From the NCBI RefSeq assembly GCF_003018255.1, contig NZ_CP027440.1: a DNA stretch of 64,000 bases. The stretch is one strand, 5' to 3'. Under the pieces are notes generated by a model. It saw nothing but the letters and a program-made list of their open reading frames with translations, had not been told where the DNA came from and searched no databases. The translations under genes were made by a program, and so were the position numbers. Shown piece by piece: positions 1-31,056 of this stretch; the stretch's first letter is position 1, and each line of letters begins with the position of its first letter. The DNA comes from Escherichia coli (GTDB lineage: Bacteria > Pseudomonadota > Gammaproteobacteria > Enterobacterales > Enterobacteriaceae).

Positions 1-1590
1 CGTCAGGCCGTGGGCGGCGGCGTAGTCGGCCATCAGGCCAAATGAGTTTCCGGCCTCGATGATAAACAGGCGCGGACGATGTAGCGCCATCAGTTGCGCG
101 ATTTTCGCGTTGAGGGTGGCGGATTTGCCCGCTCCGGTTGGCCCAAGAAGTAAAAGGTGTCCGTTCTGGGCACGATCCAGCTTGTTCAGCGGATCGAAGC
201 ACAGCGGCGTGCCGCCCCGGTTGAAGTAGCTGATCCCCGGATGCCCGGTGCCGGTTTCCCGTCCGTACAGCGGCAGCAGCCCGGCGATATGCTGCACAAA
301 GTTGAGCCGGGTATACAGCCCGCGCGGGTCGCGCAGGGGATCGAAGCACATCGGCAGCCAGCGCAGCCAGTGGCTTAAGGGGGCGACTTCGTGCTGCTCC
401 TGCACCGGAACCAGCCCGGCGTTGAGCAGCAGGCTCTGTAGCTGACGCTGCTGGCGGAACAGGATATCGGTGTCCGGCGCGCTGAGATAAAACGCCAGCG
501 TGCTGCGGTAGAGTTTATGGCCGTCCTTCAGGAAGCTTCGCACCTCGCTGCAGTCGCGGCGGGTGTATTCCGAATCGGTATTGTCGCCAATCGCCCGGTC
601 GGCCAGGCGGCTGATGTGTTGCTCCAGCTTGTCCTGCGGATACACCACCACGGTCAGGTTCATGATGGTTCCGCCAGGCAGCAGGTCGACCAGGGCGTTA
701 ATGCCGTCTCCGCGCGCGGTTTCCCCGGTCAGCAGGCCGGGCGGCGGCGCTTTGCGCAGGCGGTCAACCACCACCACTTTATGCGGGCGGTTATCCAGCC
801 ACCAGACGCCGTTTGCCGCATCCGAACGGGGTTCACTCGCCAGCAGGCGTTCGGCGAAATCGGCCAGGACCGGCAGCGGTTCAGTTTCCGGCAGGTCAAG
901 CTGCTGCCAGAAGGCTTTTTTGTCCTCAGCAGGCGGCGCGGGATTAAACCAGCGCACCAGCCAGCGGTGAATGTCCTGCTCATTCTGGCGGATAGCGCTG
1001 ATACCCGCCGCTTTTAGCCCGGCGGTAAGGCGTTCGCAGATATTATTCAGCGTCTCTTCCGGCGACGGTTCATCCGGTGAAAGTCCAGGAAGCCATCGGT
1101 ACACCACCATCCGCGTGCGCCGCCACGTCGCCCGCCAGCGGGTACGGGTGACGGTGTTATCGAGAAACAGTCCCTCGTCGCGGGTGAGATTCACCATATG
1201 GTTTGCCATCTGTGTGAGCCACTCGCGGGTAAAGGCGGAGTCGCGGATTTCCGGTGCGGCGTAAGAGGCAAGTGATGCCAGCCACGCCTCGCTGTCGTCC
1301 TCATCCTGACAGAAAAACTGTACCACCCACGGTGCGCGCTCATGCTCATCAAACGCATCCTGTAAGGCATCGGTGACGGTATCGCGGACCTGTTCCAGAA
1401 ACGCCGTTGAGCGGCCTTCGGTGCCAACGGGATATAGCTCAAATACGGCACCTACCGAGCGGCCATCTTCCAGCAGCAGCGTCTGCGACTCCGGCAAAAA
1501 CTCCACCCACGGCAGCCAGTCGACAAATGACGGGCCCTTGCGGTAGCTGGTATTCAGCGCCTGTTCAGTCAGGCCGCGCCGTTCATTCAT
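1..1590 (-). CDS. Conjugative transfer ATPase of GI-type T4SS (VirB4/TraC-like), N-terminal ~530 codons; 3' end beyond window start
   Basis: Absent from ORF track because the stop is outside the window. Manual reverse translation from ATG at 1590 gives MNERRGLTEQALNTSYRKGPSFVDWLPWVEF...; in-frame Walker A GPTGAGKS at plus 121-144; start overlaps stop of the upstream lipoprotein gene (ATGA). Confidence 0.65.
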   Translation of the reverse strand, partial: MNERRGLTEQALNTSYRKGPSFVDWLPWVEFLPESQTLLLEDGRSVGAVFELYPVGTEGRSTAFLEQVRDTVTDALQDAFDEHERAPWVVQFFCQDEDDSEAWLASLASYAAPEIRDSAFTREWLTQMANHMVNLTRDEGLFLDNTVTRTRWRATWRRTRMVVYRWLPGLSPDEPSPEETLNNICERLTAGLKAAGISAIRQNEQDIHRWLVRWFNPAPPAEDKKAFWQQLDLPETEPLPVLADFAERLLASEPRSDAANGVWWLDNRPHKVVVVDRLRKAPPPGLLTGETARGDGINALVDLLPGGTIMNLTVVVYPQDKLEQHISRLADRAIGDNTDSEYTRRDCSEVRSFLKDGHKLYRSTLAFYLSAPDTDILFRQQRQLQSLLLNAGLVPVQEQHEVAPLSHWLRWLPMCFDPLRDPRGLYTRLNFVQHIAGLLPLYGRETGTGHPGISYFNRGGTPLCFDPLNKLDRAQNGHLLLLGPTGAGKSATLNAKIAQLMALHRPRLFIIEAGNSFGLMADYAAAHGLT

Positions 1591-1946
1591 GGCGGCGTCA
1601 GGCGTTCGCCCGGCAACGCATACTGCGGACGGGTATAGAAGGGGAAAACGGTGCTGTAGCCGGGTACCGGCGTGTTGCTGTTGAGGTGCTGGAAGACGTA
1701 AAGCACCATATCCGGGTTGGGCAGGCGCGGAAACTGGCTGCGGATAGTGTCTGCCTCAGGCTGCGCCACCGGACCATCTGGCGGGCGGCGTAGCTGGGCG
1801 CGGGCATCCAGCAGAGCCGCGTTGCCGCCGCTTTGCTGCTGCCACAGCGTCAGCATGCTGGCATTGGGGTCGACAGGCATCAGTTCCTCCTGCGAGGTGC
1901 TGCATCCGGCCAGTAACAACAGAAGTATAAGGATGGTAAATTTCAT
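1587..1946 (-). CDS. ICE conjugative transfer region lipoprotein
   Basis: 119 aa ORF; N-terminus MKFTILILLLLLAGCSTS has a lipobox (LAGC); overlaps neighbours by 4 nt on both sides. Confidence 0.6.
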   Translation of the reverse strand: MKFTILILLLLLAGCSTSQEELMPVDPNASMLTLWQQQSGGNAALLDARAQLRRPPDGPVAQPEADTIRSQFPRLPNPDMVLYVFQHLNSNTPVPGYSTVFPFYTRPQYALPGERLTPP

Positions 1947-3238
1947 TCCAGACCTCCCGGTGTGCTGGCCTGCTGGTATTTCACCTGACGGCCTTCCGGC
2001 TCGTAGTCGATAGACAGCGCTTCGGTGAGATGCACCGCCACCTTGTGGCCCGGCGGCACGTACACGGCGTCGAACATCTGGCCGTAGTGCTGTTTCATCC
2101 AGTCGGCGGTCTCTTTCAGCCCGCCGCCAATAGCCTGGCCGAGCACGTACTGACCGTTGTTGCCCGTCACTGCGCTGGTGATGCTGCCGTCCTCGACCAC
2201 TGTGGTGCTTTCGCCATTGGCGAAGGCCTGCGCCGCCGCACCGGAACCCGCCAGCAGGAACTGCGAGGTCAGGTACTCCTTCGCATTGCTTTTACGCTCG
2301 CCGGGAATACATGGCAGCCCCTGGTTATCCGAAAGCCAGCCGATCTCCTGCTGTTTGTTGCCGGATTTGCCGCCCTGCGGGACGGTGCGGATGATGCCGT
2401 CGTGAAACACAAAGGTCATCGAGGTGATTTGCCCGCGCACACAGGAGAGCGTCCAGTCTCCCGAGGCGATGCCGGAGACCACCGCGCCCGCCACGTCCGG
2501 CAGCTCAACGCCATTGGCGGTGAGGTTGTCCTCGCCAATCAGAAGTTTAAACGGGTAGGGATCGCTGACGGTGCCGTTAAGCGGCACGCGGCCAATCAGC
2601 GCCGTCATCGCCACCGATCCGGTCAGCGTGGCGTTCTGCGGCAGGGTGTAGACCTTCACGTCAGGTTTCGGCGGTGGTTTGTCGGCCGCTTTCAGAGGGA
2701 CGCGCAGCAGCTTTTCATCCACAGGTGGAGGCGCATCCAGCGGCTCCAGCCAGCGGATATCGGGTTGAACGTCGGCAGGTAGTTCGCCGGGCGTCAGCCC
2801 CAGACCGGGCGGGATATCGTCCGGGCGCTTGGCCATCAGACGGTCGAGCTTATCCAGCAGCCCGCGCTGGCTTTTCACCAGTTCATCGCGCATCTGGTCC
2901 TGCTGGCGGCGCATGTCTTCCCGAAGCTGAGAGGCCAGCGTGGCCTGCTGTGCGTTAAGCCGTTTTTCGCGCGCCTGCTGGCTTTCGTTGTTTGTCTGGA
3001 TTGCCTGAAGTTCGCGGCGGTACTGTTTCATCTGGCCGACCAGCGTGGCGACGGTGTCGGCGGGCGTGTCGCCGTCGATGCCCAGATCGCGCAGTTCCTG
3101 CGGCGTTAAGGCCGCCACGGTGCGGGACAGGGAAGTCTCCTGCGTGTTTTTGCTGGCCGGGCGCAGCAGCAGCCATACCGTTACCAGTACGATGAGCGGC
3201 AGCAGGATTTTCAGCAGCAGGCTCTGGCGCGGCATCAT
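1943..3238 (-). CDS. ICE T4SS protein (PFL_4705-like), N-terminal TM helix, coiled-coil middle
   Basis: 431 aa ORF; hydrophobic N-terminal segment; GC-rich codon usage like flanking ICE genes; 4-nt overlaps. Confidence 0.5.
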   Translation of the reverse strand: MMPRQSLLLKILLPLIVLVTVWLLLRPASKNTQETSLSRTVAALTPQELRDLGIDGDTPADTVATLVGQMKQYRRELQAIQTNNESQQAREKRLNAQQATLASQLREDMRRQQDQMRDELVKSQRGLLDKLDRLMAKRPDDIPPGLGLTPGELPADVQPDIRWLEPLDAPPPVDEKLLRVPLKAADKPPPKPDVKVYTLPQNATLTGSVAMTALIGRVPLNGTVSDPYPFKLLIGEDNLTANGVELPDVAGAVVSGIASGDWTLSCVRGQITSMTFVFHDGIIRTVPQGGKSGNKQQEIGWLSDNQGLPCIPGERKSNAKEYLTSQFLLAGSGAAAQAFANGESTTVVEDGSITSAVTGNNGQYVLGQAIGGGLKETADWMKQHYGQMFDAVYVPPGHKVAVHLTEALSIDYEPEGRQVKYQQASTPGGLE

Positions 3239-4002
3239 GGTTTGGGCTCCGGCAGCAGGGCGCGGGAAACCGGACCTTCCGTCACCAGGTACGCCACGGT
3301 GGTATCTTCTGCCAGACCACGCGGGCCGAGCCAGTCATGCTGGAACGCGGCAGCGGTGAACTGCCCCTGAAGCTCGCGCGGATCGAGCGTGATGCGCTGT
3401 CCGCTGTGATTTTGCAGGCGGATGGCGGTGACGGTGGTGGCGTTGACCTGCCATGACGCCAGCGGGGTGGCGGTAACCGGCTGCTGCGGCAGTAAAGTGG
3501 TGATGCGTTTCGCCAGCCGGACGGGCGCAGGTGTGACGCCGGGCAGGGCTTCGACGGTGCGCAGCGGCGCATACAGATTTTGCGCGGCGTAGCGCACCAG
3601 CAAGACGGGCAGAGGTTCTGTTGATGCTGTCACCGGGACGGATGTTTTTGCTGTGGCAGGCGTCTGCGGCGTATAGCTAATTTGCATTGGTTCAAGTGTC
3701 GAAGTGCCCTGGGTGGCATGAATATCCAGCAGGATCAGCTCACCGTTGCCGGTATCACGTAACTGGATGCGGGTGGCCGGGAACGCCGTGTTCGCCAGCA
3801 GGAAGACCTTGCCGCCTGCGCTTTGCAGACGCACTTTGCCTTCCAGCGTGGCGGGATAGCCAATGCGCACCGGTTTACCCACGTCAACAATTCGCTCCTG
3901 CCCGACATGCAGCGTGACGGGCAGCGGGATGTTTTCCCACTGCACCACTTCCGTGGCGAAGGCGGGGAAACTGAACAATAAAGTAAAGAGGACTGGCTTC
4001 AT
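3235..4002 (-). CDS. ICE T4SS exported protein (PFL_4704-like)
   Basis: ORF track 3235..4185, trimmed to the internal ATG at 4002 (MKPVLFTLLFSFPAFA signal peptide) that overlaps the upstream stop as ATGA. Confidence 0.5.
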   Translation of the reverse strand: MKPVLFTLLFSFPAFATEVVQWENIPLPVTLHVGQERIVDVGKPVRIGYPATLEGKVRLQSAGGKVFLLANTAFPATRIQLRDTGNGELILLDIHATQGTSTLEPMQISYTPQTPATAKTSVPVTASTEPLPVLLVRYAAQNLYAPLRTVEALPGVTPAPVRLAKRITTLLPQQPVTATPLASWQVNATTVTAIRLQNHSGQRITLDPRELQGQFTAAAFQHDWLGPRGLAEDTTVAYLVTEGPVSRALLPEPKP

Positions 4003-4658
4003 GGTTTCTCCTCCGCCACCAGACGCTGCGGCGCGGCATCGGTACAGTCGATCGCCAGTCCCCACGGATTTTTCTCCGCATCGATGGCGTAGCGCACCAC
4101 CTGCAACGGGTAGCGCACCAGCGCTTTTTTCACCGGCTCGTTCTGGTAGTACTCTTCCACCGCCACATCCAGCGTTACCCGCCATGAATCCCGGCTCAGC
4201 GCCTCCACGCGCGGGAAGGGGCGCTTCTCGCCCTCATGCACCAGGCTGCTGTAGCCGTGGCCGGGCAGTTCATAGACGCCGCGCGTGCGGTCGCGCAGTT
4301 CACCGCCGTTGCGACGCACCTGAAAATCGTGCTCCAGCCGGGTGTAACAGGCGGGCGTCAGGTAGGCACGCAGCGAACGAAGATTACGGGAATAGTCCTC
4401 CTCGCCGTTATCCGGCCAGCGGTTAAGCTGCTGGAAGATATAAAAGGTGAAGGCGTAGACGCTGGCGGGAGGCACTTCCCACCACGGGCGGGTGCTGCCG
4501 CTGCGCAGATCCGGCGGGAACCAGAGGGTGAGCTTTTGCGGCGCGCTGTACCAGCCGTAGCCGACGCCCGCCAGACACAGGCACAGCAGAACAATCACCG
4601 CCCGCAGCGTCAGGATATGGTTATCGCGCTCAGCCAGCGCATGGCGAAAGCGGCTCAT
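3999..4658 (-). CDS. ICE T4SS membrane protein (PFL_4703-like)
   Basis: ORF track 3999..4682, trimmed to ATG at 4658 overlapping upstream stop (ATGA); one TM helix (VIVLLCLCLAGVGYGWY). Confidence 0.5.
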   Translation of the reverse strand: MSRFRHALAERDNHILTLRAVIVLLCLCLAGVGYGWYSAPQKLTLWFPPDLRSGSTRPWWEVPPASVYAFTFYIFQQLNRWPDNGEEDYSRNLRSLRAYLTPACYTRLEHDFQVRRNGGELRDRTRGVYELPGHGYSSLVHEGEKRPFPRVEALSRDSWRVTLDVAVEEYYQNEPVKKALVRYPLQVVRYAIDAEKNPWGLAIDCTDAAPQRLVAEEKP

Positions 4659-5008
4659 CGTGGACTCCTGCGCACCACCCACACGGCGCTGTGCTGGATC
4701 AGTTGTGCGCCGCGAAGATGATGACGCTCCAGCCAGGCGAGGAGCGCCTGCGGCAGCCAGGTGTCGGGCTTACCGCGTTTTGCGCGGGCCAGAATCCGCC
4801 CACCACCCTGAATCAGTAATGCCGCGCCAGCAAGTGCCGAACCGGGGATCAACGGCCAGTAGTGGGTTATCAGGGCCAGCAGAATGCCGAACGCACAGCC
4901 GCCGCCAAGACCGAGAGCCAGCGCCAGAAACAGTTCGCTGGTGGTGAGGCCGCGCCAGACCACGGGCTCGCGGTTGAGGCGGTCGGGGAGAAAGGGGATG
5001 GTTGCCAT
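4655..5008 (-). CDS. ICE T4SS membrane protein
   Basis: ORF track 4655..5137, trimmed to ATG at 5008 just downstream of the preceding stop; two hydrophobic helices. Confidence 0.45.
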   Translation of the reverse strand: MATIPFLPDRLNREPVVWRGLTTSELFLALALGLGGGCAFGILLALITHYWPLIPGSALAGAALLIQGGGRILARAKRGKPDTWLPQALLAWLERHHLRGAQLIQHSAVWVVRRSPR

Positions 5009-5009
5009 A

Positions 5010-5327
5010 TCACAGGACGTCCGAAGCCTGGTTGAGCAGCCAGATGATGACCACCAGAAGAATGCTGCCGACGCCTGCCATCGAGCCCAGATCTTTCCAC
5101 TGCTTGCGTCCGCTCTGGATCTCCGAATAGGTAGCAATACAGTTGTTCGCCACTACCAGAAAACCGACGGCACAGATGGCCAGCGCCAGCAGCACCACGA
5201 TGTCAAAACCGTAGTTTTGCAGCGTCTCCATAATGCCCTTGCCCTGACCGCGTGACGGATCTTCCATCGTCGGCAGGTCGGCGAGGGCGTTAAATGTGGC
5301 GAACAGCAGTAACAGAAACCAGCGCAT
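5010..5327 (-). CDS. ICE T4SS integral membrane protein (PFL_4702-like)
   Basis: 105 aa ORF with signal-like N-terminus and hydrophobic core. Confidence 0.5.
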   Translation of the reverse strand: MRWFLLLLFATFNALADLPTMEDPSRGQGKGIMETLQNYGFDIVVLLALAICAVGFLVVANNCIATYSEIQSGRKQWKDLGSMAGVGSILLVVIIWLLNQASDVL

Positions 5328-5336
5328 GATGCCTCC

Positions 5337-5570
5337 TCAGCTCAGTACCAGCCAGAAGCTGACTAGCACCAGTAACAGTGAATGGGCCGCCACCGCGCCA
5401 AAGCTCTGCCAGCTCAGACGCTGGCGGCAGACGCCCTGCCAGGCGACCATTAGCGTCCAGGCACACCACAGCAGCAGGACGCTGGTAAACAGGCCGAGCA
5501 CCAGCAGGCTGACGGTCTCCGGTTTGCTCAGGCTGGCGGCCTGAAAGGCGGCGAGTTGCGAGTCAGTCAT
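5337..5570 (-). CDS. ICE small membrane protein
   Basis: 77 aa ORF, two predicted TM helices, tightly packed in the operon. Confidence 0.45.
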   Translation of the reverse strand: MTDSQLAAFQAASLSKPETVSLLVLGLFTSVLLLWCAWTLMVAWQGVCRQRLSWQSFGAVAAHSLLLVLVSFWLVLS

Positions 5571-5871
5571 CGGGATTCTCCTGCTGGTAGTTGGCGCTCA
5601 GGGGCTGAATAGCACGCGGCTGTGCTCTAGCCGGGGCAAGATAGCGGCGAATGCCTTGTTCAACGACAGAGATGTCCTGCTGCGCCTGTAAGTAGTCGAA
5701 GAAGTAGCGCGCCTGCGGATCGTTGCTGGCGCTGGTCCGGGCGTGCTCCAGCGAGGTTTTAACGCCGTCGAGTTGCTTCAGCGCGAGGGCGAGCTGGGTG
5801 GATTCCGGGGAGGCGATTACCAGTACCGGGAAAGGTATTATTAACAGTAATAGTGCTGTCTGGGACTGCAT
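5563..5871 (-). CDS. RAQPRD-family integrative conjugative element protein
   Basis: 102 aa ORF with signal peptide and the family-defining motif (here RAQPRAI). Confidence 0.6.
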   Translation of the reverse strand: MQSQTALLLLIIPFPVLVIASPESTQLALALKQLDGVKTSLEHARTSASNDPQARYFFDYLQAQQDISVVEQGIRRYLAPARAQPRAIQPLSANYQQENPDD

Positions 5872-5938
5872 TTGAAGCTCTCCTTATACTCAATGATTAG
5901 CAAAGTAGGAGAGCTTCAGAGGTGAAGCAGCTAAAAAA

Positions 5939-7180
5939 TCATTTCACTACATGAAGAATTTTTAGCATAGAGTTGTCAATGGTCTGTTTGATTTTCTCGT
6001 AATAAATTGGTTCAGATAATGGCGAGTCCCAGGTATGTATATCATTTTTATCAAAGGGAATACATTTCATCGCTGTCTTTTTTAGTTTTTTCCCTTTTTG
6101 TTCGTACTCGTCAATGTCATTTACAGTGAATTTCAAACTTTCTATTCTTGCTTTGACTATTGCTGTTGGGCAGATGAGTTTTATATTCCCTAAAGTAAAT
6201 GTGTTAACTCCAGTAATGAAGAATCTATCAGGGATGTTTTTATAGTATCGAGTATTCCATATTTTACCATTAAACATACCTGCTGGGTGAGTTGCTCTTT
6301 CAATATAGTATTCATGGGTTCTCTGGTCACTAATCCCTGAAAGATTCATTGTCATATTAGCTATCATGTTGGGAATAGGTCTGTACCAAACGCTAAGTGC
6401 AGCGGTTGCGACAGGTATAAATATTAAAACAACAATAATTCCTGTCATTTTATTGCCGTTTTGCCGTTCATTAATATGTATGATACCAGGCAGAATGCCA
6501 ATTGTAACAATAACTACAGTTATGGCAATGAGTATGCTCATCTCATACCAGTCACTAGTACCCTCACTGAAATTAAGTTGGTTAAACAGAAACATCATTG
6601 GTAATATTTGTACTACTCCAGGTATTATAAGTTGTAAGGATAACCAGAAGTTGAATCCTTTCTTTCTGGATAGTTTTTCGTATCGCACTGTATTATTTAA
6701 GCGAGATTTTTGTTTTCTAAATAGCCGAATCGCACATGTAACATAGCTGTGAATAAATATGGAAATAATACTAAAGGCTGTAATTATGTAGCCATTCCAT
6801 TTTGTCATGTAATAAATGTAATAAGCAATGATTAGCAGGCAGCATATAAATAAGCTATTCTGATAGCAAACAGTAGAAATCCGATGGGTGATGCTAGAAT
6901 ATACCTTTAACTTGTTTTCATATCCAGAGTAAATAAGTATTAAAATAAAAGATGAGATGAAAATTATTAGGCTGAATCCTGATATCGATAATAAAATAAA
7001 AAAGAATATAATCCCTAAGGTTGAACTGAGGTTTACAGCATCGAAAAAAATATCTAATCTATCAATGTTTGATAGGTAAAACCATATAACTGCTATCGTG
7101 AATCCAGTGATGAAGGTAGATGAGGTTACTACTGAAATAATGAATTTTTTGTTTATGATATTAAAAATAGGTTTGTCCAT
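5939..7180 (-). CDS. AT-rich cargo protein: polytopic membrane N-terminal half (~8 TM helices) plus C-terminal soluble domain, unknown function
   Basis: 413 aa ORF; conspicuously AT-rich, I/K/N/Y-rich codon usage unlike the GC-rich ICE backbone; no recognisable catalytic motif. Confidence 0.6.
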   Translation of the reverse strand: MDKPIFNIINKKFIISVVTSSTFITGFTIAVIWFYLSNIDRLDIFFDAVNLSSTLGIIFFFILLSISGFSLIIFISSFILILIYSGYENKLKVYSSITHRISTVCYQNSLFICCLLIIAYYIYYMTKWNGYIITAFSIISIFIHSYVTCAIRLFRKQKSRLNNTVRYEKLSRKKGFNFWLSLQLIIPGVVQILPMMFLFNQLNFSEGTSDWYEMSILIAITVVIVTIGILPGIIHINERQNGNKMTGIIVVLIFIPVATAALSVWYRPIPNMIANMTMNLSGISDQRTHEYYIERATHPAGMFNGKIWNTRYYKNIPDRFFITGVNTFTLGNIKLICPTAIVKARIESLKFTVNDIDEYEQKGKKLKKTAMKCIPFDKNDIHTWDSPLSEPIYYEKIKQTIDNSMLKILHVVK

Positions 7181-7225
7181 GGTTTGAATTCCATCTCTAA
7201 AAAATTTCTTGTCTTGTGTTTTTTA

Positions 7226-7510
7226 TCACCAATTTACAGGTAAGCGCCGATGGGTATGAAACACGCGTAAAACCTGAATTATATTATTTCGTACTCGATA
7301 GGGAATGATATAAGGGTAATTATGAAGAATGAGCTCACGTGTTTCAGGTACCCTTCCTTCCCGGCCCATAGCGGGTTGCTCTTTGAGCAGTTGCGTAAGT
7401 CGCCAGACTTCGTTCACAAACCGTTCCGCAGCCTGCGGATCGTCTTCAGCAATATACCGGAACTCAGCTTCGAGATTGGCAATGGCTTTACGTAGCCACT
7501 TAATTTCCAT
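7226..7510 (-). CDS. Type II toxin, RelE/ParE family
   Basis: 94 aa ORF with RelE/ParE-like size and sequence; overlaps the upstream antitoxin gene by 11 nt. Confidence 0.7.
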   Translation of the reverse strand: MEIKWLRKAIANLEAEFRYIAEDDPQAAERFVNEVWRLTQLLKEQPAMGREGRVPETRELILHNYPYIIPYRVRNNIIQVLRVFHTHRRLPVNW

Positions 7511-7745
7511 CTGGCTTTACTCCCAGACGTTGAAACAGCTTATCCACCTCATCTGAAGTGGCAAAATCACCGGCATCAGCTTCCTGAATGGCCTGCTCAA
7601 TCTCTGCAACTTGCCAGGCCTCCCGGGCAACATAATCTTCAATTGCCTGATTTGCCAGCCAGGACTTTGAGCGTCCGGTCGCTTTTGATAATGCTTCCAG
7701 TTGCGTGGAAAGATTGTTGTTTAAACGGACTGACATTACGCCCAT
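7500..7745 (-). CDS. Type II antitoxin, ribbon-helix-helix (ParD/CopG-like)
   Basis: ORF track 7500..7820; likely start ATG at 7745 (MGVMSVRLNNNLSTQLEALSKATGRSKSWLANQAIEDYV); ~80 aa, immediately upstream of and overlapping the toxin. Confidence 0.6.
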   Translation of the reverse strand: MGVMSVRLNNNLSTQLEALSKATGRSKSWLANQAIEDYVAREAWQVAEIEQAIQEADAGDFATSDEVDKLFQRLGVKPDGN

Positions 7746-7810
7746 ATTGGTGGCCTCATACACATGTACACATTGTATACATTGTAGTGAGGTGCGATTT
7801 TTTGAGCAAC

Positions 7811-8458
7811 TTATAACCAACGTTTAAAGCTTCCTGCTGCCATCCATACCGCTATCCCGGACCATAAGGCGGCAGGAAGTAAAACCAGCATCGCGGGCAG
7901 AGAAAATGGCTGCGCCAGATAAACCACCCAAAGCGTGGTGGTGACTGAACTGCCGCACCTGATGACATAACGGTGGAGAAAAATGGATTCCAGCCCGGAG
8001 CCAAACCGTCTTAAATCCCGGTGTACCAGGCCTTCTGTCAGCCCGGTTACAGCACTGAGGCACAGCAGTGGCAACATGATAACCAGCCACGTCAGGCGCA
8101 GCGCAAAGCTGATCATGGTATAAGCCAGGACGGTAACGGGTTCGTGGAACAACCGACTCACGGCCTTATGTCTGACATCATTAACGCGGGTTATTCCATG
8201 CTCCAGCAGTACTCGTATCTCTTTCCCCAAAGGATGTGGCTGTACCGCAATAATCAGTTCCACCTTCTCCTGCCTCATCACCTGAAAAACATGCCTGCTC
8301 CCTTCCTGCGGCCACCAGAAATATAGCCCCACTAGTTCCAGCACCACTCGCAGCACCAGCGTACCGATAACCAGCCCAATAATCCGTCCGGCCAGTGACA
8401 ATAGCCAGCCAATCGGTCCCTGTGGTGGGCGTGACGGAGGCGGTCGCAGCTCACTCAT
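7811..8458 (-). CDS. ICE membrane protein (PFL_4695-like)
   Basis: ORF track 7811..8527, trimmed to ATG at 8458 overlapping the traD stop (ATGA); multiple TM helices. Confidence 0.5.
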   Translation of the reverse strand: MSELRPPPSRPPQGPIGWLLSLAGRIIGLVIGTLVLRVVLELVGLYFWWPQEGSRHVFQVMRQEKVELIIAVQPHPLGKEIRVLLEHGITRVNDVRHKAVSRLFHEPVTVLAYTMISFALRLTWLVIMLPLLCLSAVTGLTEGLVHRDLRRFGSGLESIFLHRYVIRCGSSVTTTLWVVYLAQPFSLPAMLVLLPAALWSGIAVWMAAGSFKRWL

Positions 8459-18488: not shown

Positions 18489-19779
18489 GGCGCACCTCCC
18501 GCAGCCGCCGCTGGCGGCACAGGCTAATAAGCTGCATCAGTTGCTGGATCTGAGCGTTGTTGTAGTCCGGCGACAGCAACAATTCGAGGGCGGGCATCGG
18601 CGTACTGGTGTCGCCATTCAGGGCCGCCAGCACCTGATAGCAGCGCTGTGCCGCCGGGTGGGGAAAATCGTGGCAAGGCGCGAGGGTGAAACCGGCCGGA
18701 GCGCTGTCGTCCGGCTGGATACAGGCGTCCAGTCCCCAGCAGGCACACAGCGACTGTGCCGTATGCACCAGCGGTGAGGGCTTTGGCTCATCGGGCGCGG
18801 CGGGTTCAGTCGGTGGCTCAGGCTCTGGTAGTGGTGCTTTTTCCACTTCCGGCGGTGGCGGCCAGAGGACCTTTTCGGCCGGAGGCCCCAGCAGCACCTG
18901 CCGCTTGCTCTGACCGTCAGTCAGTTCCGCCAGCAACGTATTCCAGCTCATGCCGCTGCGACAGCTCATCTCACCGAGCAGTTCGTCCTGCACCAGTTGC
19001 GGTACCACGGCTTCCGGCTCGCCGTTGAAGATGGCGAGGGCGGTGCTGAACAGGTCGGCAAATTCGGGCTGGCGTTCCAGCGGCATCAGCTTTACCCAGA
19101 CCTGTTCTGCTGCGCTGCGTAGTGACAGCAGGCGATCGATAACCTTGCGGGTAAGACCGCCATATAGCGCGTTTGGGATGCAGGGCAGCAGCCAGTCTAC
19201 GGTCTGTAGCATCCGGCTGATTTGCGACTGGCTGACGGGATAGCCGTCGCGGGTGAGTTGTTCCGCCAGCGCCAGCTGCGTCGGGCATTCAATGCCTGCC
19301 TCGAGGTAAAGATCGCGCAGGTGCAGGACCCCTTCCGCCCGTTCGATAAACATCAATCCGTTATGCAGGTCGCTTTCGGCCAGATGGCCGATCAGGCACT
19401 GGACTTCGCCTTGCTGCGGTGACAGCGTTTCCGGCCACGGTCTGAACGGCCAGCAGACGCGGTGGTAACGCTCATCCTGCGTCTCCTGCCACAGTTCATT
19501 GAGGATGGCGAGGCGCGTATTTCCGCCGCTGGCGAGCATATATTTTTCATCACCGGGGCGGCGGGTCAGTACCGGCGGGTTATCCAGCCCACGGGCAAGA
19601 ATTGACGCCTTCAGCACGTCATAGCCGGGGTTGCGGGTGACGCGGGGATTGAGGGAGAACGGCTGGATTTGCTCCAGGCTGACCTGGACCATTTCCTGTT
19701 CTCCGGTATTGCTGGCGCCGTGAAGCCAGCGGTTGAGCAGGTGTGAAGCGCACATAATCTTCCTCCGGCATTCAGACAT
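18472..19779 (-). CDS. ParB-family partition / nuclease-domain protein of ICE
   Basis: 435 aa; N-terminal ParB/Srx-like region; proline-rich linker. Confidence 0.55.
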   Translation of the reverse strand: MSECRRKIMCASHLLNRWLHGASNTGEQEMVQVSLEQIQPFSLNPRVTRNPGYDVLKASILARGLDNPPVLTRRPGDEKYMLASGGNTRLAILNELWQETQDERYHRVCWPFRPWPETLSPQQGEVQCLIGHLAESDLHNGLMFIERAEGVLHLRDLYLEAGIECPTQLALAEQLTRDGYPVSQSQISRMLQTVDWLLPCIPNALYGGLTRKVIDRLLSLRSAAEQVWVKLMPLERQPEFADLFSTALAIFNGEPEAVVPQLVQDELLGEMSCRSGMSWNTLLAELTDGQSKRQVLLGPPAEKVLWPPPPEVEKAPLPEPEPPTEPAAPDEPKPSPLVHTAQSLCACWGLDACIQPDDSAPAGFTLAPCHDFPHPAAQRCYQVLAALNGDTSTPMPALELLLSPDYNNAQIQQLMQLISLCRQRRLREVRHDTLS

Positions 19780-19972
19780 CGCGGGTAAGCCGGATGCGCT
19801 GGTGGATCCACGCGTCCACCTCGCTTTCCAGCCAGGCGACGTGGCGGCTATTGAGTCGAATGGACGGCGGAAACTGTTGCAGCTGGATTTGTCGATAAAT
19901 CCACGATTTACCGAAGCCGATTTTATCTTCCACCTGGCGTAAGCGTAAAAATCTGTCGCTATTCATAACCAT
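19772..19972 (-). CDS. alpA: AlpA-family transcriptional regulator / excisionase-like DNA-binding protein
   Basis: 66 aa; RLRQVEDKIGFGKSWIYRQI... helix-turn-helix typical of AlpA. Confidence 0.6.
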   Translation of the reverse strand: MVMNSDRFLRLRQVEDKIGFGKSWIYRQIQLQQFPPSIRLNSRHVAWLESEVDAWIHQRIRLTRDV

Positions 19973-20104
19973 TCCTCCTGTGTCCAGATTCGTTCACATC
20001 AGCACGATAGGCGTGGTTATCAAAGCAGCAGCGTCCCTGCCAGGCAGTAAAAATCCTTATCTGGGTTAGTGAGAGTTGTTAGTTGAAAGGGTTAGTTGAT
20101 CGCG

Positions 20105-20995
20105 TTACGGCGGTGCGCCGCGCTGGAGTGCGGTTTTCAACGTCTCGGGGCTCAGCGGCAGGTGCATACCTTCCTCACGCGCCCAGCATTCGAAAATATT
20201 CAGCAGTTTGTAGGGATGCTCCAGCATTTCATCGTCCAGTTGCGGGTTGTGCTTGCAGGCCAGCCACAGCAAACGCGAAAGCGCGGAGGTGATCCGCTCC
20301 TTTGATTCTGGCTGATGACGGGTCAGGAAGGCTTCGAGATGAGTGCGGCGGATGATGAACAGTGCGTCAGGAGGCAGCGTGTCCTGCAGGTAGCAGACGG
20401 ACAGACTGAGCCGGGATTTCAGGTCATTGTGGCCATTACCATATAGCTGGCCAATCAGCAGATGAAGCTCTTCCTGGAGGTTGTTTTGCGTGGCGAGCAG
20501 TTCCAGTAAAAGCTCCCGCAACGATTTGCGGCAACAGAGTTGGTAGTAGCTGTCGTTTTCATCGCAGACCACGATGCCAATCTGGTTGCAGCAATGGGTA
20601 TCATTGGGGCAAGGGCGATTCAACGTTTTCGCCAGTTGCTGGTGGAGCAGCAGGCGCTCAATGCCGATTAACGGCAAATTCCACAGATGGCTGGTGGTCA
20701 GTTGCAGAGTTGGGTCGCGTCTGCACGGCGGCGAGTTTGCCATCACTTTGCGGTTGCCGGGTTTGTTGCACTGCGAAGGTGGAAAAGGAGGCTTACTGAA
20801 TCGGCAGGCAAAGCGGCAAGGCGGATTGAGTGGTCTCAGCAGAACGGGCGAAGGGAAGTAGACCGAGAGCGACAGATCGCCGTGCAGGGCATGGCGGATC
20901 AGGTCGGCGGGCAGCAACGTGATGTTGTGCTGCCGGATGACTTCTGCAGCCTCATCCAGCGTCAGCCACTCTTGGCGAATTTTGTGTGGGGGCAT
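20105..20995 (-). CDS. ICE-associated hypothetical protein
   Basis: 296 aa ORF; last backbone-like gene before the AT-rich cargo; no Walker motif, so not ParA. Confidence 0.45.
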   Translation of the reverse strand: MPPHKIRQEWLTLDEAAEVIRQHNITLLPADLIRHALHGDLSLSVYFPSPVLLRPLNPPCRFACRFSKPPFPPSQCNKPGNRKVMANSPPCRRDPTLQLTTSHLWNLPLIGIERLLLHQQLAKTLNRPCPNDTHCCNQIGIVVCDENDSYYQLCCRKSLRELLLELLATQNNLQEELHLLIGQLYGNGHNDLKSRLSLSVCYLQDTLPPDALFIIRRTHLEAFLTRHQPESKERITSALSRLLWLACKHNPQLDDEMLEHPYKLLNIFECWAREEGMHLPLSPETLKTALQRGAPP

Positions 20996-21144
20996 GGGTA
21001 ACTCCTATTAGTTACATATGATGAGTACTATCTAAAAAAGCCAACTAAAGCGAGGTAAGGTGAGTTCTTTTAACTGGTTGTTTTGTATGTGATCTATTGG
21101 TGTTTTTTTTAGGTTTTTTACTGTTTTATTTAGGAAATCAATGA

Positions 21145-21172
21145 TTACGAATAGGCATAAATATGGTATGAT
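21145..21172 (+). promoter_or_regulatory. Candidate sigma70 promoter of the cargo operon: -35 TTACGA, 16-bp spacer, extended -10 TGgTATGAT
   Basis: Hexamers at 21145-21150 and 21167-21172 with TG at 21164-21165, about 40 bp upstream of the ATG at 21211. Confidence 0.35.
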
Positions 21173-21210
21173 ATCCATTAGTATAATATCAATGGATAAA
21201 GGCTTCTGTT

Positions 21211-23157
21211 ATGAATTTTGAAGAGCTTATAAATGATATTGAAAGACTCTTAATTGGTAAAGAGTTGCAGTCTATAAATCCTAACACCCCCCCATTATTC
21301 CTTTTAAAAATAGACAGGGATATTGGTAAATATTACGTGTCTGTTTCTTTAAATGCTAAGCCTACGGCAAGGTCAATTTCTGAATTTGAATATATATTTA
21401 ATGACTTACTGCGTAAAGGGTTTTGTAATGTAGATCAGTCATTATATGGTAGCTCTTCAAGCCGTAATCACCCGGAAACAATATTTGCAAACTTGCCTTA
21501 TATTCAATTCTTTAAGTTCAAGAAAAAGAAACATATATTATTACGTAATAAAAATGTACACGAAGCAGGTCAACTTTCTGAATTACAAGGGGCTGAGTCT
21601 CGTGCTATAAGGAAGCAAATAGAAAATTATTTATCTCTAAATTTAAGTGAAATTGCAGAGCAGCAGTTAAAATCGTTGGAAAAAATGTTCGATGCGTATG
21701 ATGCTATTTTAAAAAAATACCCAGGGGATATCCCTGTTATAATGGCTGAGCAAGGCTTGTTGGGATTAAAAAACATTAGCGAAGTACTGATTAATTCTTA
21801 TGTTTCCTTGGATTTTGACAGTAGTGGCGATAAAATAAATAAATTAAGTAAATTTAAACAGGTGGAGTTATTTAAAGAAGATTTATCTTTAGAGGATTTA
21901 ATTGAGTCCCCTGAGATAAGTGGAGTTGATTCAGGTGATAAGAATATTGAGGAACAATCGGAATCAGAATTAGCACCTGAGCAAAAACGTACGGGCATTG
22001 CAAAAATGCTTATGACTACACCAGTTTTAACACTAATTTTTGATCGTGTAAGATATGATGAAATTGAGTTACAACCTGACTTTCAGAGAAAAGACCGAAT
22101 TTGGCCTGACGACAAAAAGTCAAAACTTATTGAATCAATATTAATGAAGCTTCCATTACCGGGGTTTTACTTTGGTGAAAAGCCAAACGGTAACTGGGTA
22201 GTTATTGATGGCCTTCAAAGAACGACTACAATTTGTGATTATATGAGTGGTCATTTCTCATTGAAAGGGCTCTCTATTTTAGAGCACTTAAATGGAAAGA
22301 GTTTTAAAGATCTTACTCGAACCGAGCAACGAGACATTAGAGAGTATCAAATTACGGCTTACCAAATAGAACTAAATGATGATAGTTCTGAATTGGTTGT
22401 AGAACTATTCCATAGAATAAACACTTATGGTGTAAAGTTAAGTAGTCAAGAAATAAGATCTGCACTTAATAAAGGCAATAGCGTAACCTTTTTACGTTAT
22501 TTAGCTTCATTAGAAACGTTCAAAAAAGCGACGCAATTTAAAGTAAAGCCGGACAGGCAAAAAGATATGGAGCTCTGTTTGTCCGCTCTTGCTTTTATGG
22601 TACTTGGTTATAATAACTATGGCCAACATTCGTATGATCATTTTTTATGTAGTGCAATGCAGAAGCTAAATAATTATCCATTAAGCATCATTAATAAAGA
22701 AGAGATTGATGCTGGAACAGCTCTTATTTCTCCTTCAAGTGAAGTCTTTTTAACTTTATATTCAAAATATAATCAGGCTTTAATCTTAGCAAATGAAGTT
22801 TTTGGTGAAATAGCTTTTTCAAAAGATCCGGAAAATAAAAAATCACCTATTAATAAACAACTCTTTGAGTTAATTGTTACTGTTTTCTCTGTATTTGACT
22901 CACATCAAAAGGAGATGATGTTAGCTAATGGTGATAAATTTATTGATAGCTTATACTTGGCTATTGAGGAGAATAGTAGTCGATATGCTAAGTGGGAGTC
23001 TGATACATATGAAAAGGACGATAGAGGATTTAGAGACTCAATATCTACTTCGACAGGTAAAAGAATATCTGTTGTATATCGATTTGATGCTTTTTTAAAT
23101 ATCCTTGGAAAAAGCACAGGAATAACTATTGATAGTAAATTATTACAGGGGGAGTGA
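21211..23157 (+). CDS. DUF262 / ParB-like (GmrSD N-terminal-type) domain protein with unknown N- and C-terminal domains
   Basis: 648 aa; central region has LQPDFQRKDRIW and DGLQR (variant of the DGQQR motif); no recognisable DUF1524/His-Me nuclease motif; AT-rich. Confidence 0.7.
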   Translation: MNFEELINDIERLLIGKELQSINPNTPPLFLLKIDRDIGKYYVSVSLNAKPTARSISEFEYIFNDLLRKGFCNVDQSLYGSSSSRNHPETIFANLPYIQFFKFKKKKHILLRNKNVHEAGQLSELQGAESRAIRKQIENYLSLNLSEIAEQQLKSLEKMFDAYDAILKKYPGDIPVIMAEQGLLGLKNISEVLINSYVSLDFDSSGDKINKLSKFKQVELFKEDLSLEDLIESPEISGVDSGDKNIEEQSESELAPEQKRTGIAKMLMTTPVLTLIFDRVRYDEIELQPDFQRKDRIWPDDKKSKLIESILMKLPLPGFYFGEKPNGNWVVIDGLQRTTTICDYMSGHFSLKGLSILEHLNGKSFKDLTRTEQRDIREYQITAYQIELNDDSSELVVELFHRINTYGVKLSSQEIRSALNKGNSVTFLRYLASLETFKKATQFKVKPDRQKDMELCLSALAFMVLGYNNYGQHSYDHFLCSAMQKLNNYPLSIINKEEIDAGTALISPSSEVFLTLYSKYNQALILANEVFGEIAFSKDPENKKSPINKQLFELIVTVFSVFDSHQKEMMLANGDKFIDSLYLAIEENSSRYAKWESDTYEKDDRGFRDSISTSTGKRISVVYRFDAFLNILGKSTGITIDSKLLQGE

Positions 23158-24305
23158 TGAAAAAAATTACGTCTTTAACATTAAAAAATTTCAAAGCTTA
23201 TAAAGAACAGAGTTTTGATTTTAGTAATTTAACTGTATTTTGCGGTAATAATTCTGTTGGTAAAAGTACGGCTATTCAAGCTATCGGTATGTTTCTCCAA
23301 TCAGATATGAATGGTAACAGTAATCTAAAAATAAATGGCGATTTAGTTCATGTCGGAGACTTCGACGATATTCATAATTTCAGTATGCGTGAGGATGATG
23401 TTTTATATTTAAAATATACATTTGAAGACGATACGGCTTGCTGGGGATATGGTATAGAAGAAGGGGATGCTAGAGAAGAACTTTCTAGGAAAAATGAATT
23501 ACCTTTTATTGGGTGTGATAAACAATTAAGAACTATAACAAACTCACTTAAAGATAACTTTTCATTCCAATATTTGGAAGCGGAGAGATTTGGTCCAAGA
23601 GATAATATTCCATTATCACAGCACAATTATCATGAAGGTTGGCTTGGGAAAAATGGGGAACATACAATTGAAGTTCTTGAGAGTTTGGTCACAAGGAGGC
23701 GTTTAAATTTTTCTGCTCAAGAGGATCCTAGGAAACATGAAGGAATTATTAATAATAATGTTTTCAATCATATTGAAGCATGGATGTCTGAGATTTCACC
23801 AGGGCATCGTATCTCACCTAGAATTGAGGCTAGGGCGAATGTTGCATTTAATGTCATAATCCCTTCACCTGGACAATTAACGAAACCTATTAACATAGGA
23901 TTTGGATTTAGTTATGCTCTTAGTATTGTCACTGCTTTAATGCTGGCATCAAAAAATGAACTCGTTATTATTGAAAATCCTGAGGCTCATCTACATCCAA
24001 GAGGTCAAAGCTATTTAGGACGACTTATTGCTTTATCAGCAAAAGCAGGGATCCAGGTTATTATTGAGACTCATAGTGATCATCTTCTTAATGGCATAAG
24101 AGTAATTGCACGCACAGATCCAACTTTTGATGCTTCTCTTTTTACTCTTTACTATATTTCACGAGAAAATGATGAAACATCTGTCGCCAAAATAAAAATA
24201 AATAATGAAGGGAAACTTTCCGAATGGCCTAGAGGGTTCTTTGATCAACAATCACAGGATATGTATACGATAATGACAGGCTCTTTTGATCATCCCAATA
24301 TTTAA
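23157..24305 (+). CDS. ABC/SMC-like AAA ATPase (AAA_15/AAA_21-type with DUF3696-like C-terminal region)
   Basis: ORF track 23154 (GTG); ATG at 23157 overlaps upstream TGA (TGATG) with GGGGAG RBS. Walker A GNNSVGKST; ENPEAHLHP Walker B/D-loop signature; ETHSDH H-loop. Confidence 0.75.
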   Translation: MKKITSLTLKNFKAYKEQSFDFSNLTVFCGNNSVGKSTAIQAIGMFLQSDMNGNSNLKINGDLVHVGDFDDIHNFSMREDDVLYLKYTFEDDTACWGYGIEEGDAREELSRKNELPFIGCDKQLRTITNSLKDNFSFQYLEAERFGPRDNIPLSQHNYHEGWLGKNGEHTIEVLESLVTRRRLNFSAQEDPRKHEGIINNNVFNHIEAWMSEISPGHRISPRIEARANVAFNVIIPSPGQLTKPINIGFGFSYALSIVTALMLASKNELVIIENPEAHLHPRGQSYLGRLIALSAKAGIQVIIETHSDHLLNGIRVIARTDPTFDASLFTLYYISRENDETSVAKIKINNEGKLSEWPRGFFDQQSQDMYTIMTGSFDHPNI

Positions 24306-24324
24306 TATTGTAGGGACATATAAA

Positions 24325-25209
24325 ATGAAAGCTGGCGTGTTTCTTATTCCTGAATGTTTTGATTTCAATACGGATATTTTATCTTTAAGTTCGGACCTTG
24401 ATCTGGCTTCGAAACTCGTAGTAAATACCCGTTCAGAATTTATTCACTTTATGAAATCTAGGGAGTTTGACTCGAAGATTGCGGAGTTATTGTTTTCCAC
24501 ATCACCTGATTATGCTGGAATGATGTCAAGATTTTACGATCAGCATCTATCAAAAGTTATAAAAATGGATATTAATGACGATGATATTATTGATATTATA
24601 AATAGCGAAGAACCTAAGTATTCTAACCGTTTGTTATCAATTTTTAATACGGGAAAAAAAGATTTAAATATTAAATATGTTAATAGATTAATTGACTCAG
24701 AAATTAAGATGAATGATTATTGTACTGATATCTTATTGAATTACCCAAGAAATGACGAGCAATACTGTGAGGATATACAGCAGGTTTATAAAAATTTAAT
24801 TTTCCTAGATTATCCAGAGGCAAAAGAATTTAAGACATTTAATAGTCTCAAGAGAATGACCGGTGGTTATGATAATTTCTTGAAGGCTATAACCAATTTT
24901 TTAAGTTATATGAATAAATTCGAATTCAAAACGAAAGATATGATGGATACATTGAAAATGATGGAGAGTGATTTAGGATCTCCAGTAACTCCGGAAGGAG
25001 GGGGGAAGAAAAGCCGATCTTTGAAAAGAGATTTTTTAATTAATGGAAAGCTATATACAAATGTAAACTGCGAATTCCATTTGAAATTAGAAAATGTTGA
25101 TGATACTAAGGGAAACAGAAAACACCATAAGAATAGAATTTATTTTGGATTTATTATGATAAGTGATAAAAACAGAGTGGCAATAGCTCATATTGGGGAA
25201 CACATTTGA
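24325..25209 (+). CDS. Hypothetical protein, third gene of the DUF262-ATPase operon
   Basis: ORF track 24286..25209; ATG at 24325 with AGGGA RBS follows the ATPase stop by 20 nt; 294 aa, no recognisable motif. Confidence 0.5.
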   Translation: MKAGVFLIPECFDFNTDILSLSSDLDLASKLVVNTRSEFIHFMKSREFDSKIAELLFSTSPDYAGMMSRFYDQHLSKVIKMDINDDDIIDIINSEEPKYSNRLLSIFNTGKKDLNIKYVNRLIDSEIKMNDYCTDILLNYPRNDEQYCEDIQQVYKNLIFLDYPEAKEFKTFNSLKRMTGGYDNFLKAITNFLSYMNKFEFKTKDMMDTLKMMESDLGSPVTPEGGGKKSRSLKRDFLINGKLYTNVNCEFHLKLENVDDTKGNRKHHKNRIYFGFIMISDKNRVAIAHIGEHI

Positions 25210-25219
25210 AATCATTTTA

Positions 25220-25248
25220 AACCTACTGATAGTATATATCAGTAGGTT
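25220..25248. terminator. Perfect palindromic hairpin between convergent operons (likely bidirectional terminator)
   Basis: AACCTACTGATAGTATATATCAGTAGGTT between stop of the plus-strand operon (25209) and stop of the minus-strand restriction gene (25271). Confidence 0.5.
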
Positions 25249-25270
25249 CATGTTAATTTGATGTTCTTAG

Positions 25271-27419: not shown

Positions 27420-27644
27420 TTTATACCTATCAAGTTAGCTTAAATTTTTACTAAATATCTCGCTGTACGATCCTACTATTTTACATGATAACTTGTTAAT
27501 TATCAATTTACTTTTTAATATATTAGCAAATAAGACCTGGCACTACTTCAGATTAGATAGTATTCATTGCTATAAAGTTAGGTGTTAATATATTGATTAA
27601 TAGTATAAGCTGCTATTATAGATTTAGAAACCGAAGGAACTTAT

Positions 27645-28100: not shown

Positions 28101-28282
28101 ATTATTATGACAAGTTCCCTTGAGTGGTAATATCTAACATCGTTATTTGCTAATATATATATGAAATAAAGTAATTGCCAAGAAATTTATTACAAAACAA
28201 GACCCGCAAAAAATCTCTTTCCATGTGGGGTTTTATTAGCTATTAGTGTTTGGTTAAATTATTAACCATCAATAGGCATCCT

Positions 28283-28423: not shown

Positions 28424-28555
28424 ATGCGTTTCGGACCTGGAAAATAATTACGCAACTTTGTGATCTTCCACCCAGTATTCAATTTTATGTCCCATTTTGG
28501 GGGCAAATCCTCAAAATAAAATCTCACAAACCATTATTTTTCAACGAATTAAACG

Positions 28556-30004: not shown

Positions 30005-30011
30005 TGAACGC

Positions 30012-30992: not shown

Positions 30993-31056
30993 ATAATTTT
31001 CGCGTAATACAAATGACAAATTGATAGCAGGGCCCCTTTACCGAGGCCCTGAAGCG

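Follow-up and report, generated by a model that had tools for sequence, protein, structure and literature searches.

The probable integrase-distal half of a leuX-associated integrative and conjugative element of the PFGI-1/ICEclc class in Escherichia coli

Integrative and conjugative elements (ICEs) of the PFGI-1/ICEclc/pKLC102-PAGI-2 class have been dissected in ICEclc of Pseudomonas knackmussii B13, where in-frame deletions in the transfer region defined 15 essential genes, orf62755 among them (PMC10018362). In this element BisR switches on the alpA promoter. The ParB-like BisD then acts together with BisC, a DUF2857 protein, to activate the promoters for transfer competence in bistable fashion, among them the promoter that precedes the RAQPRD gene (PMC7423338); BisD is a CTP-dependent sliding clamp that is loaded at bisS sites (PMC12409273). 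The authors of the deletion study considered the orf67800 site permissive, a toxin-antitoxin pair plus a CBASS system being inserted there in P. aeruginosa (PMC10018362), and a 2025 study named the interval between traD and the RAQPRD gene GI-Hotspot 8 (PAGI-2/PAGI-3/LESGI-3), reported a known defence system in 29% of its instances, and listed Serratia, Salmonella, Klebsiella and Xanthomonas, with E. coli not among the listed genera, as carriers outside Pseudomonas (PMC12629846). A leuX subgroup, comprising GI-leuX of Salmonella Virchow SVQ1 and the GI-T4SS (type IV secretion system) regions of Klebsiella pneumoniae 1084 and NTUH-K2044, was referred to as 'uncharacterized' in 2014 (PMC4042001). 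Here, we describe a 64,000-nucleotide stretch of an E. coli genome (contig NZ_CP027440.1 of assembly GCF_003018255.1; the window), of which positions 1-28,590 very probably form, to judge from gene content, gene order and comparison with related genomes, the integrase-distal half of an approximately 60-kb ICE that belongs to this class and lies in the 3' end of the tRNA-Leu gene leuX.

To read the window, minus-strand open reading frames (ORFs) were translated and each was scanned against NCBIfam with curated cut-offs; Pfam and PADLOC were used in addition. Over positions 1 to about 21 kb the window shows 100% identity with the chromosomes of two human isolates from Japan, E. coli JNE23-011 and JNE112863; the former, matching genome (RefSeq NZ_AP045067.1) supplied the annotation as well as the sequence that precedes the window on the left. 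The window and this record differ by a single-base insertion or deletion in the AT-rich intergenic sequence at about 21000-21210, from where on the record coordinates are shifted by +1. An earlier note, made from the letters alone, had proposed a minus-strand train of conjugation genes in positions 1-20,995, and each gene it named is borne out, at its place, by NCBIfam, Pfam or RefSeq. The secretion and coupling genes are as follows:

1-1590, minus strand: conjugative ATPase of the VirB4/TraC type (IceB4 of ICEclc); TIGR03744, 730.6 bits against a cut-off of 520.6
1587-1946, minus strand: conjugal-transfer lipoprotein (orf62755 of ICEclc); TIGR03751, lipobox LLAGC
1943-3238, minus strand: VirB10-like protein (IceB10); TIGR03752, 489.7 bits
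3235-4002, minus strand: VirB9-like protein (IceB9); TIGR03749, 288 bits
3999-4658, minus strand: VirB8-like protein (IceB8), PFL_4703; TIGR03746, 287 bits
4655-5008, minus strand: inner-membrane protein (orf66202); TIGR03750
5010-5327, minus strand: membrane protein, candidate pilin (IceB2); TIGR03745
5337-5570, minus strand: membrane protein (orf67001); TIGR03758
5563-5871, minus strand: RAQPRD-family protein (orf67231), with which the secretion operon starts; TIGR01690, 92.8 bits
7811-8458, minus strand: DUF4400/TIGR03747-like inner-membrane protein (orf68241); 127 bits, below the cut-off of 138.5
8455-10473, minus strand: coupling protein TraD, VirD4 type (IceD4); TIGR03754, 1012 bits
10470-10988, minus strand: SLT-domain lytic transglycosylase, VirB1-like (IceB1); RefSeq annotation, weak VirB1 match (E 5.5e-4)
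10967-11641, minus strand: thioredoxin-like protein (orf72295); TIGR03759, 248 bits
11645-12379, minus strand: PilL2/DotD-like lipoprotein (IceB7); TIGR03748, 103.8 bits

This gene set looks complete and stands in a conserved, class-specific order. Every TIGR model in the list is matched above its curated cut-off except TIGR03747; in all, 20 backbone genes in the window score above the cut-offs of their families, as do TIGR03755, TIGR03756 and the relaxase outside it. These ICE-specific families uphold the PFGI-1/pKLC102/SPI-7-type class that the earlier note had assigned, and with them the secretion system is predicted to be a 'GI-type' MPF_G T4SS working with a MOB_H relaxase. The window contains only the N-terminal 530 codons of the VirB4-type ATPase, including the GPTGAGKS Walker A motif at residue 483 that had been noticed before, and the gene runs off the window start, having a full length of 2,643 nt in the matching genome. 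The lytic transglycosylase stands as an SLT-domain protein in the RefSeq annotation, its likeness to VirB1 being faint. Overlapping gene ends are less frequent than the earlier claim that most junctions overlap by 4 nt: a 4-nt ATGA overlap is found at seven of the 27 junctions (about half of those within the secretion block), and 12 of the 27 overlap at all. The locus might instead be a conjugative plasmid that has integrated, or an ICE from a different class (SXT/R391, ICEKp1/VirB-type or F-like), since TraD also scores on the SXT_TraD subfamily model and since a regulatory gene cassette of this locus, described below, lies beside a VirB/Trb-type system in K. pneumoniae. Such an origin is extremely improbable, as the secretion genes match PFGI-1-class equivalog models and not VirB, Trb or F models (the ATPase reaches 34 bits on TIGR00929 vs 731 bits on TIGR03744), no replication initiator was found, and the insertion is in a tRNA gene with an adjoining integrase.

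The window itself holds no tRNA gene, and the earlier note had placed the integrase, the relaxase and leuX beyond its start. Reading leftwards in the matching genome recovered all three, together with TraG_N, TIGR03755 and TIGR03756. In NZ_AP045067.1, leuX (tRNA-Leu) follows ahr, and next come a tyrosine integrase gene, cargo with AbiE and HNH genes and a MobH relaxase (NF041494 (MobH), 328 bits; TIGR03760, the PFGI-1-class ICE relaxase, 244 bits), followed by ArdC, TraG_N (named from RefSeq annotation only), TIGR03755, TIGR03756, about 15 kb of cargo and then the VirB4 gene, which leads into the window. The integrase ORF (18818-20494 of the left stretch) is uninterrupted; its 558-aa product comprises an Arm, a central and a catalytic domain and contains the HxxR and Tyr residues. 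Intact homologues of 558-564 aa with 96-99% identity are present in at least five genera, Citrobacter, Klebsiella, Enterobacter and Salmonella among them, and homologues in Edwardsiella and Pectobacterium are 87-90% identical. The cargo between TIGR03756 and the VirB4 gene (33364-43461 of the left stretch) includes a chaperone-usher fimbrial operon behind its own tyrosine DNA invertase, which suggests that the fimbria on the ICE is phase-variable; beyond the fimbrial operon there is a serine recombinase-ParB-RepB trio.

To the right of the secretion genes, the backbone continues with a regulatory and maintenance block:

12415-12795, minus strand: hypothetical protein, 126 aa; RefSeq annotation
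12869-13312, minus strand: STY4534-family protein; NF040584, 182 bits
13596-13778, minus strand: hypothetical protein, 60 aa; RefSeq annotation
13886-15691, minus strand: topoisomerase III gene topB; NCBIfam match, interrupted at codon 466 by an in-frame TAG (14294-14296) where relatives have GAG
15883-16308, minus strand: DUF3158 protein; RefSeq annotation
16298-16909, minus strand: PFL_4669-family protein; NCBIfam
17069-17941, minus strand: STY4528-family protein; NCBIfam
17931-18488, minus strand: DUF2857 protein, corresponding to BisC, which is the FlhC-like activator subunit in ICEclc; RefSeq annotation
18472-19755, minus strand: ParB-like protein of the PFGI-1 class, counterpart of BisD; TIGR03764, 286 bits
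19772-19966, minus strand: AlpA-family small DNA-binding protein, 64 aa; PF05930, E 2.2e-18
20105-20995, minus strand: conserved 296-aa orphan, the last backbone gene, in the position occupied by bisR in ICEclc

The STY4528-, ParB- and AlpA-like genes were recognised correctly in the earlier note; topB is likewise present, but is interrupted by the stop codon and is a pseudogene in this copy, being intact in strains Res13 and C10. The ParB-like protein (427 aa) combines the nucleotide motif GNTR with a proline-rich linker and a domain at the C-terminus. The 296-aa orphan gave no match in Pfam, NCBIfam or PADLOC; its N-terminus is probably a winged helix of the Xis/AlpA/MerR type, and a profile search with its family against 1.84 billion representatives retrieved 985 relatives. 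The distant relatives that were inspected lie outside ICE contexts and therefore provide no link of the family to BisR. In K. pneumoniae, a member of the family precedes AlpA and DUF2857 genes at the edge of a VirB/Trb-type secretion island, and the orphan-AlpA-DUF2857 cassette is therefore common to two ICE types; it is a candidate enterobacterial analogue of the BisR-AlpA-BisC control of ICEclc. No long or convincing palindrome of the bisS type (GAGCTATCCCCnGGGGATAGCTC, 11 bp) was found in 12,000-21,300.

The gene train is not as continuous as the earlier note had it. Its minus-strand order stands, but a low-G+C insert of 1.9 kb at 5,872-7,810, previously passed over, splits it between the RAQPRD gene and the DUF4400/traD pair, and carries three genes:

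5939-7180, minus strand: multi-pass membrane protein, 413 aa; no family match
7226-7510, minus strand: RelE/ParE toxin; family match
7500-7745, minus strand: CopG/RelB antitoxin; family match

This site corresponds to the orf67800 site in ICEclc and to GI-Hotspot 8, with the same bounds, traD (plus DUF4400) and RAQPRD, and with a toxin-antitoxin pair and an uncharacterised membrane protein here instead of CBASS. In a survey of 51 loci from different species, fetched through TraD, the traD-RAQPRD gap ranged from 154 bp to 7.7 kb, about ten loci being empty, and its G+C content was always below that of the flanks; ten of the 30 largest gap ORFs matched PADLOC models (TIR, SoFic-like, AbiH, DUF1848/DRT, mad2 and ATPases). 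Four E. coli relatives have four different slot contents, and sister elements in this species carry DUF4231 and TIR genes, an AAA ATPase and HNH pair, or a dCTP deaminase. The exchanges appear to include the flanking gene, since the DUF4400 protein is only 42% identical in amino acids to that of the relative no107, whereas the products of neighbouring genes are about 95% identical. In the slot of the window itself, Pfam, NCBIfam and PADLOC recognise no known defence system, only the RelE/CopG pair. The 413-aa protein has no match in these three collections, and elsewhere its only matches were to generic helical hairpins; it is predicted to have some eight membrane helices and, at the C-terminus, a domain rich in beta structure, and the structure model showed no informative fold. 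Its family is restricted to Enterobacterales, where it always occurs as a lone gene in variable islands, adjoining a type I restriction-modification (R-M) system in Serratia. Because in sister elements the slot is occupied by defence genes (TIR, Septu-like or dCTP deaminase), this protein, alone or with RelE/CopG, might on the strength of its location be an undescribed anti-phage (abortive-infection-type) or entry-exclusion determinant, an assignment that we consider rather unlikely.

The second block of cargo lies beyond the 296-aa gene and extends to the right end:

21211-23157, plus strand: NsnA of the Menshen anti-phage system; PADLOC E 1.7e-113, RefSeq DUF262
23157-24305, plus strand: NsnB, Menshen; PADLOC E 1.4e-104, RefSeq DUF3696
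24325-25209, plus strand: NsnC, Menshen; PADLOC E 1.4e-83
25271-26344, minus strand: type II restriction endonuclease; PADLOC REase_II E 3e-120
26280-27419, minus strand: cytosine-5 methyltransferase; PADLOC MTase_II E 2e-161
27645-28100, plus strand: Vsr nicking endonuclease (very-short-patch repair); PADLOC Vsr E 1.5e-27
28563-28590, plus strand: degenerate right-end repeat, GAGTCCGGCCTTCG-ACCTTCG-CACCA, with 14 exact bases of the leuX 3' end, an insertion of 6-7 bases and CACCA

The Menshen architecture of nsnA (ParB-DUF262), nsnB (ABC ATPase and DUF3696) and nsnC, and its association with methyltransferases, have been published (PMC12065111). NsnA has about 260 aa of additional N-terminus (21211-21990) that precede the part covered by the PADLOC NsnA model, and this extension, a putative sensor domain, points to the 'type II' form of Menshen (PMC12065111).

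The earlier note had ended the element at 20,995. Only the conserved backbone ends there, and the right end is at about 28,590. The backbone has a G+C content of 62.5% (1-5,871) and 59.8% (7,811-20,995), the two cargo segments have 36.9% (5,872-7,810) and 34.9% (20,996-28,562), and positions 30,400-64,000, which contain nanS-nanM-nanC, the fim operon, gntP and further core genes, have 49%. The backbone is indeed richer in G+C than the core, as had been claimed, but the genes taken to be adjacent core genes are cargo, since the defence genes (21,211-28,100) lie in a 7.5-kb distal segment of 35% G+C that reaches the leuX-derived repeat. The 14-nt leuX 3' core occurs once in the window, at 28,563-28,576, with 0.04 occurrences expected by chance, and homology to thousands of other E. 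coli genomes, including strains with other islands at leuX, resumes at 28,571; a search for the full leuX 3'-end repeat (20 nt, up to three mismatches) found none in the window. The border of the leuX hotspot on this side (28100-30995) is eroded, with a fragment of a VOC-family gene at about 28283-28366, a 150-nt fragment of a phosphorothioate-dependent restriction endonuclease at about 29068-29217, an intact HNH endonuclease at 29354-30004 and nanS without its C-terminus at about 30426-30992, after which the core continues.

Two islands in tandem could also account for this layout, with the ICE ending at about 20,998 and 21,000-28,560 being an independent defence island in front of an old leuX border. 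Backbone homology with E. coli relatives extends only 3 bp beyond the start codon (ATG) of the 296-aa gene, the G+C content falls from 58% to 35% at that point, and the content beyond it varies among relatives, in which Wadjet or FtsK-like genes occupy the distal slot. We regard this arrangement as unlikely, because no leuX-derived or other att-like repeat was found near 21,000, no integrase or transposase is annotated in 21,000-28,560, and strain Res13 has a 99.3% identical 296-aa gene followed by the same Menshen and R-M genes. The NsnC, restriction endonuclease and methyltransferase proteins of Res13 are identical to those of the window, whereas its secretion genes are only 87-93% identical, a pattern which links the distal cargo to the end of the ICE; moreover, terminal hotspots without a conserved outer boundary have been described for other islands (PMC12629846). 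Read most simply, the DNA from leuX to about 28,590 is a single element of about 60 kb, the window containing its distal 28.6 kb.

A number of observations weigh against this reading, or against an element that functions like its better-known relatives, and are best considered together. The right repeat comprises only 14 contiguous leuX bases and also bounds an unrelated island in ETEC1722, so that it may be an old scar and not the element's own attR, and no such repeat was found in the stretch examined of the relative no107. Within the backbone, the DUF4400 protein remains under its family cut-off, topB has its nonsense codon, the ParB-like protein reads ESDLH at the position of the ENxxR motif of BisD, and homologues of parA, shi and DUF2859 (orf71178) are absent from the annotation of the element. 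RefSeq labels the integrase as partial, and its gene is frameshifted in other E. coli copies (no107, D7 and EC554). For the copy described here, truncation of the integrase was rejected, since near-identical proteins of 558-564 aa are annotated as intact in many genera, and the flag is probably an annotation artefact. Finally, all E. coli copies examined are at leuX, so that vertical descent plus recombination could explain the spread within the species.

The lineage is carried by about 45 of 5,426 complete E. coli genomes (0.8%), with leuX as the site in all copies checked. A larger figure, the 179 E. coli genomes that match the 21-kb query, was rejected as a carrier count, as 133 of them share only a relic of 57-60 nt. 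This stretch (16227-16286 of the window, inside the DUF3158 gene) is 95-96.5% identical to about 133 other E. coli genomes, where it has an IS3 transposase remnant on one side and an SgrR-family regulator with a second ptsG on the other, and is apparently a relic of a related element. With traD as the query, about 44 complete E. coli genomes show at least 90% DNA identity and about 160 others only 69-76%, which come from other lineages of the class; this gap marks a separate, rarer lineage. Outside E. coli, the best TraD matches, taking one genome per species, are 67-70% identical in Citrobacter, Lelliottia and Brenneria and 62-63% in Pseudomonas and Burkholderiales. Citrobacter sp. S-77 and K. 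pneumoniae have the same arrangement from the integrase gene to MobH and ArdC beside an ahr homologue, and the ICE DNA is 92-96% identical to that of Citrobacter and Klebsiella, vs 77-85% for the flanking core genes. All backbone genes are under purifying selection, dN/dS being 0.0-0.3 in all 24 of them against three E. coli relatives and about 0.1 throughout. Sister copies have lesions of their own, including a 1-nt deletion that shifts the frame of topB in no107 and a truncated VirB4 in C10, and decay is patchy, independent and copy-specific.

These data bear on how far the locus is still an active element. A decayed, immobilised ICE remnant, inherited vertically or by recombination in the flanks and retained for its defence and fimbrial cargo, would be in keeping with the degenerate right repeat, the topB nonsense codon, the independent lesions in relatives (topB in no107, VirB4 in C10, the integrase in no107, D7 and EC554) and the leuX location of every E. 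coli copy checked, and has a precedent in the remnant ICE GI-leuX of S. Virchow (PMC4042001). Against it, this copy has all its secretion genes and the integrase ORF at full length, dN/dS stays near 0.1, the topB stop codon is recent, as indicated by the low topB dN/dS (0.08) vs Res13, and the ICE DNA is far more similar across genera than are the core genes beside it; we consider a remnant a serious possibility that falls somewhat short of probable. Only the degenerate right repeat and the broken topB count against this copy, and the chances that it still excises and transfers seem to us about evenly balanced. The combined pattern fits a lineage that has been moving among enteric genera while decaying in individual hosts.

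If the element operates as ICEclc does, the 296-aa protein and AlpA would, in a few cells, switch on the ParB-like/DUF2857 pair (similar to BisDC), which would activate the RAQPRD-to-VirB4 and TraD operons and the integrase gene; we infer this regulatory cascade from synteny with ICEclc. Excision would take place between the leuX repeat and the right-end repeat, the MobH relaxase would nick the DNA, TraD would pass the strand to the secretion channel and the integrase would re-insert it at leuX of the recipient. The Menshen, R-M/Vsr and traD|RAQPRD slot cargo would travel along and may protect both host and element from phages, with RelE/CopG stabilising the element.

In our view, the locus puts on record an E. 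coli lineage of the PFGI-1/ICEclc class that is full length and targets leuX. This lineage also occurs in Citrobacter and Klebsiella, its integrase is found in Enterobacter and Salmonella as well, and it has apparently never been named in the literature. It indicates that the traD|RAQPRD defence hotspot of Pseudomonas islands operates in E. coli too, with a second hotspot at the outer end, and that the element probably moves Menshen, R-M systems (in relatives Wadjet, TIR and Septu-like systems) and a fimbrial operon between enteric genera. It may further provide an enterobacterial, genetically tractable counterpart for the bistable BisR-AlpA-BisDC switch of ICEclc. The importance is modest: this is an ordinary member of a known family and will not surprise a specialist, and both the internal hotspot and Menshen have already been published.

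Among the described systems, ICEclc shares the secretion gene families and their order (PilL/IceB7-TraD-DUF4400-RAQPRD-IceB2-B8-B9-B10-lipoprotein-VirB4), and all of its 15 essential genes have a counterpart in the E. coli element, 11 in the window and four to its left, while its non-essential or partly dispensable genes orf71178 (DUF2859), orf73029 and orf67800 have none. The two elements also agree in having a MOB_H relaxase and an integrase of the P4 type whose C-terminus is long, and in both an orphan without a Pfam domain and with a probable DNA-binding N-terminus lies at the element end, bisR in ICEclc and the 296-aa gene here. The alpA, ParB-like and DUF2857 genes follow in the same order, although in ICEclc it is alpA-(parA-shi)-bisD-bisC (PMC7423338) and parA-shi is missing here; BisD has 550 aa and the motifs GxxR and ENxxR, compared with 427 aa, GNTR and ESDLH in the ParB-like protein. 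ICEclc inserts at tRNA-Gly and carries clc/amn catabolism genes, whereas the E. coli element is at leuX with defence and fimbrial cargo, and owing to the lack of parA-shi and the other tRNA it is not ICEclc in the strict sense. PFGI-1 of P. protegens (fluorescens) Pf-5 gave its name to family models matched here (PFL_4703, PFL_4669, PFGI-1 parB, PilL2 and the relaxase), the likeness being drawn through these models only; it has a Pseudomonas host and another tRNA target, and the E. coli element has no pil cluster beyond PilL2. SPI-7 of Salmonella inserts at the tRNA-Phe gene. It has in common with the E. coli element STY4528- and STY4534-family proteins, topB, parB and a GI-type secretion system; its type IVB pilus operon (pilL-pilV) and Vi capsule genes do not occur in the annotation of the E. 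coli element, which has PilL2 only and which, given the missing pil operon and the different tRNA, is not SPI-7 in the strict sense either. Two further enterobacterial elements, ICEEc2 (E. coli BEN374, the first of the class reported in E. coli) and ICEKp2 (K. pneumoniae HS11286), also belong to the class and are set apart by their described target, tRNA-Phe vs leuX here. The nearest published description is that of the leuX subgroup of S. Virchow GI-leuX and K. pneumoniae, in which GI-leuX is a 22-kb remnant with a frameshifted traD, whereas the E. coli copy has the full gene set (PMC4042001).

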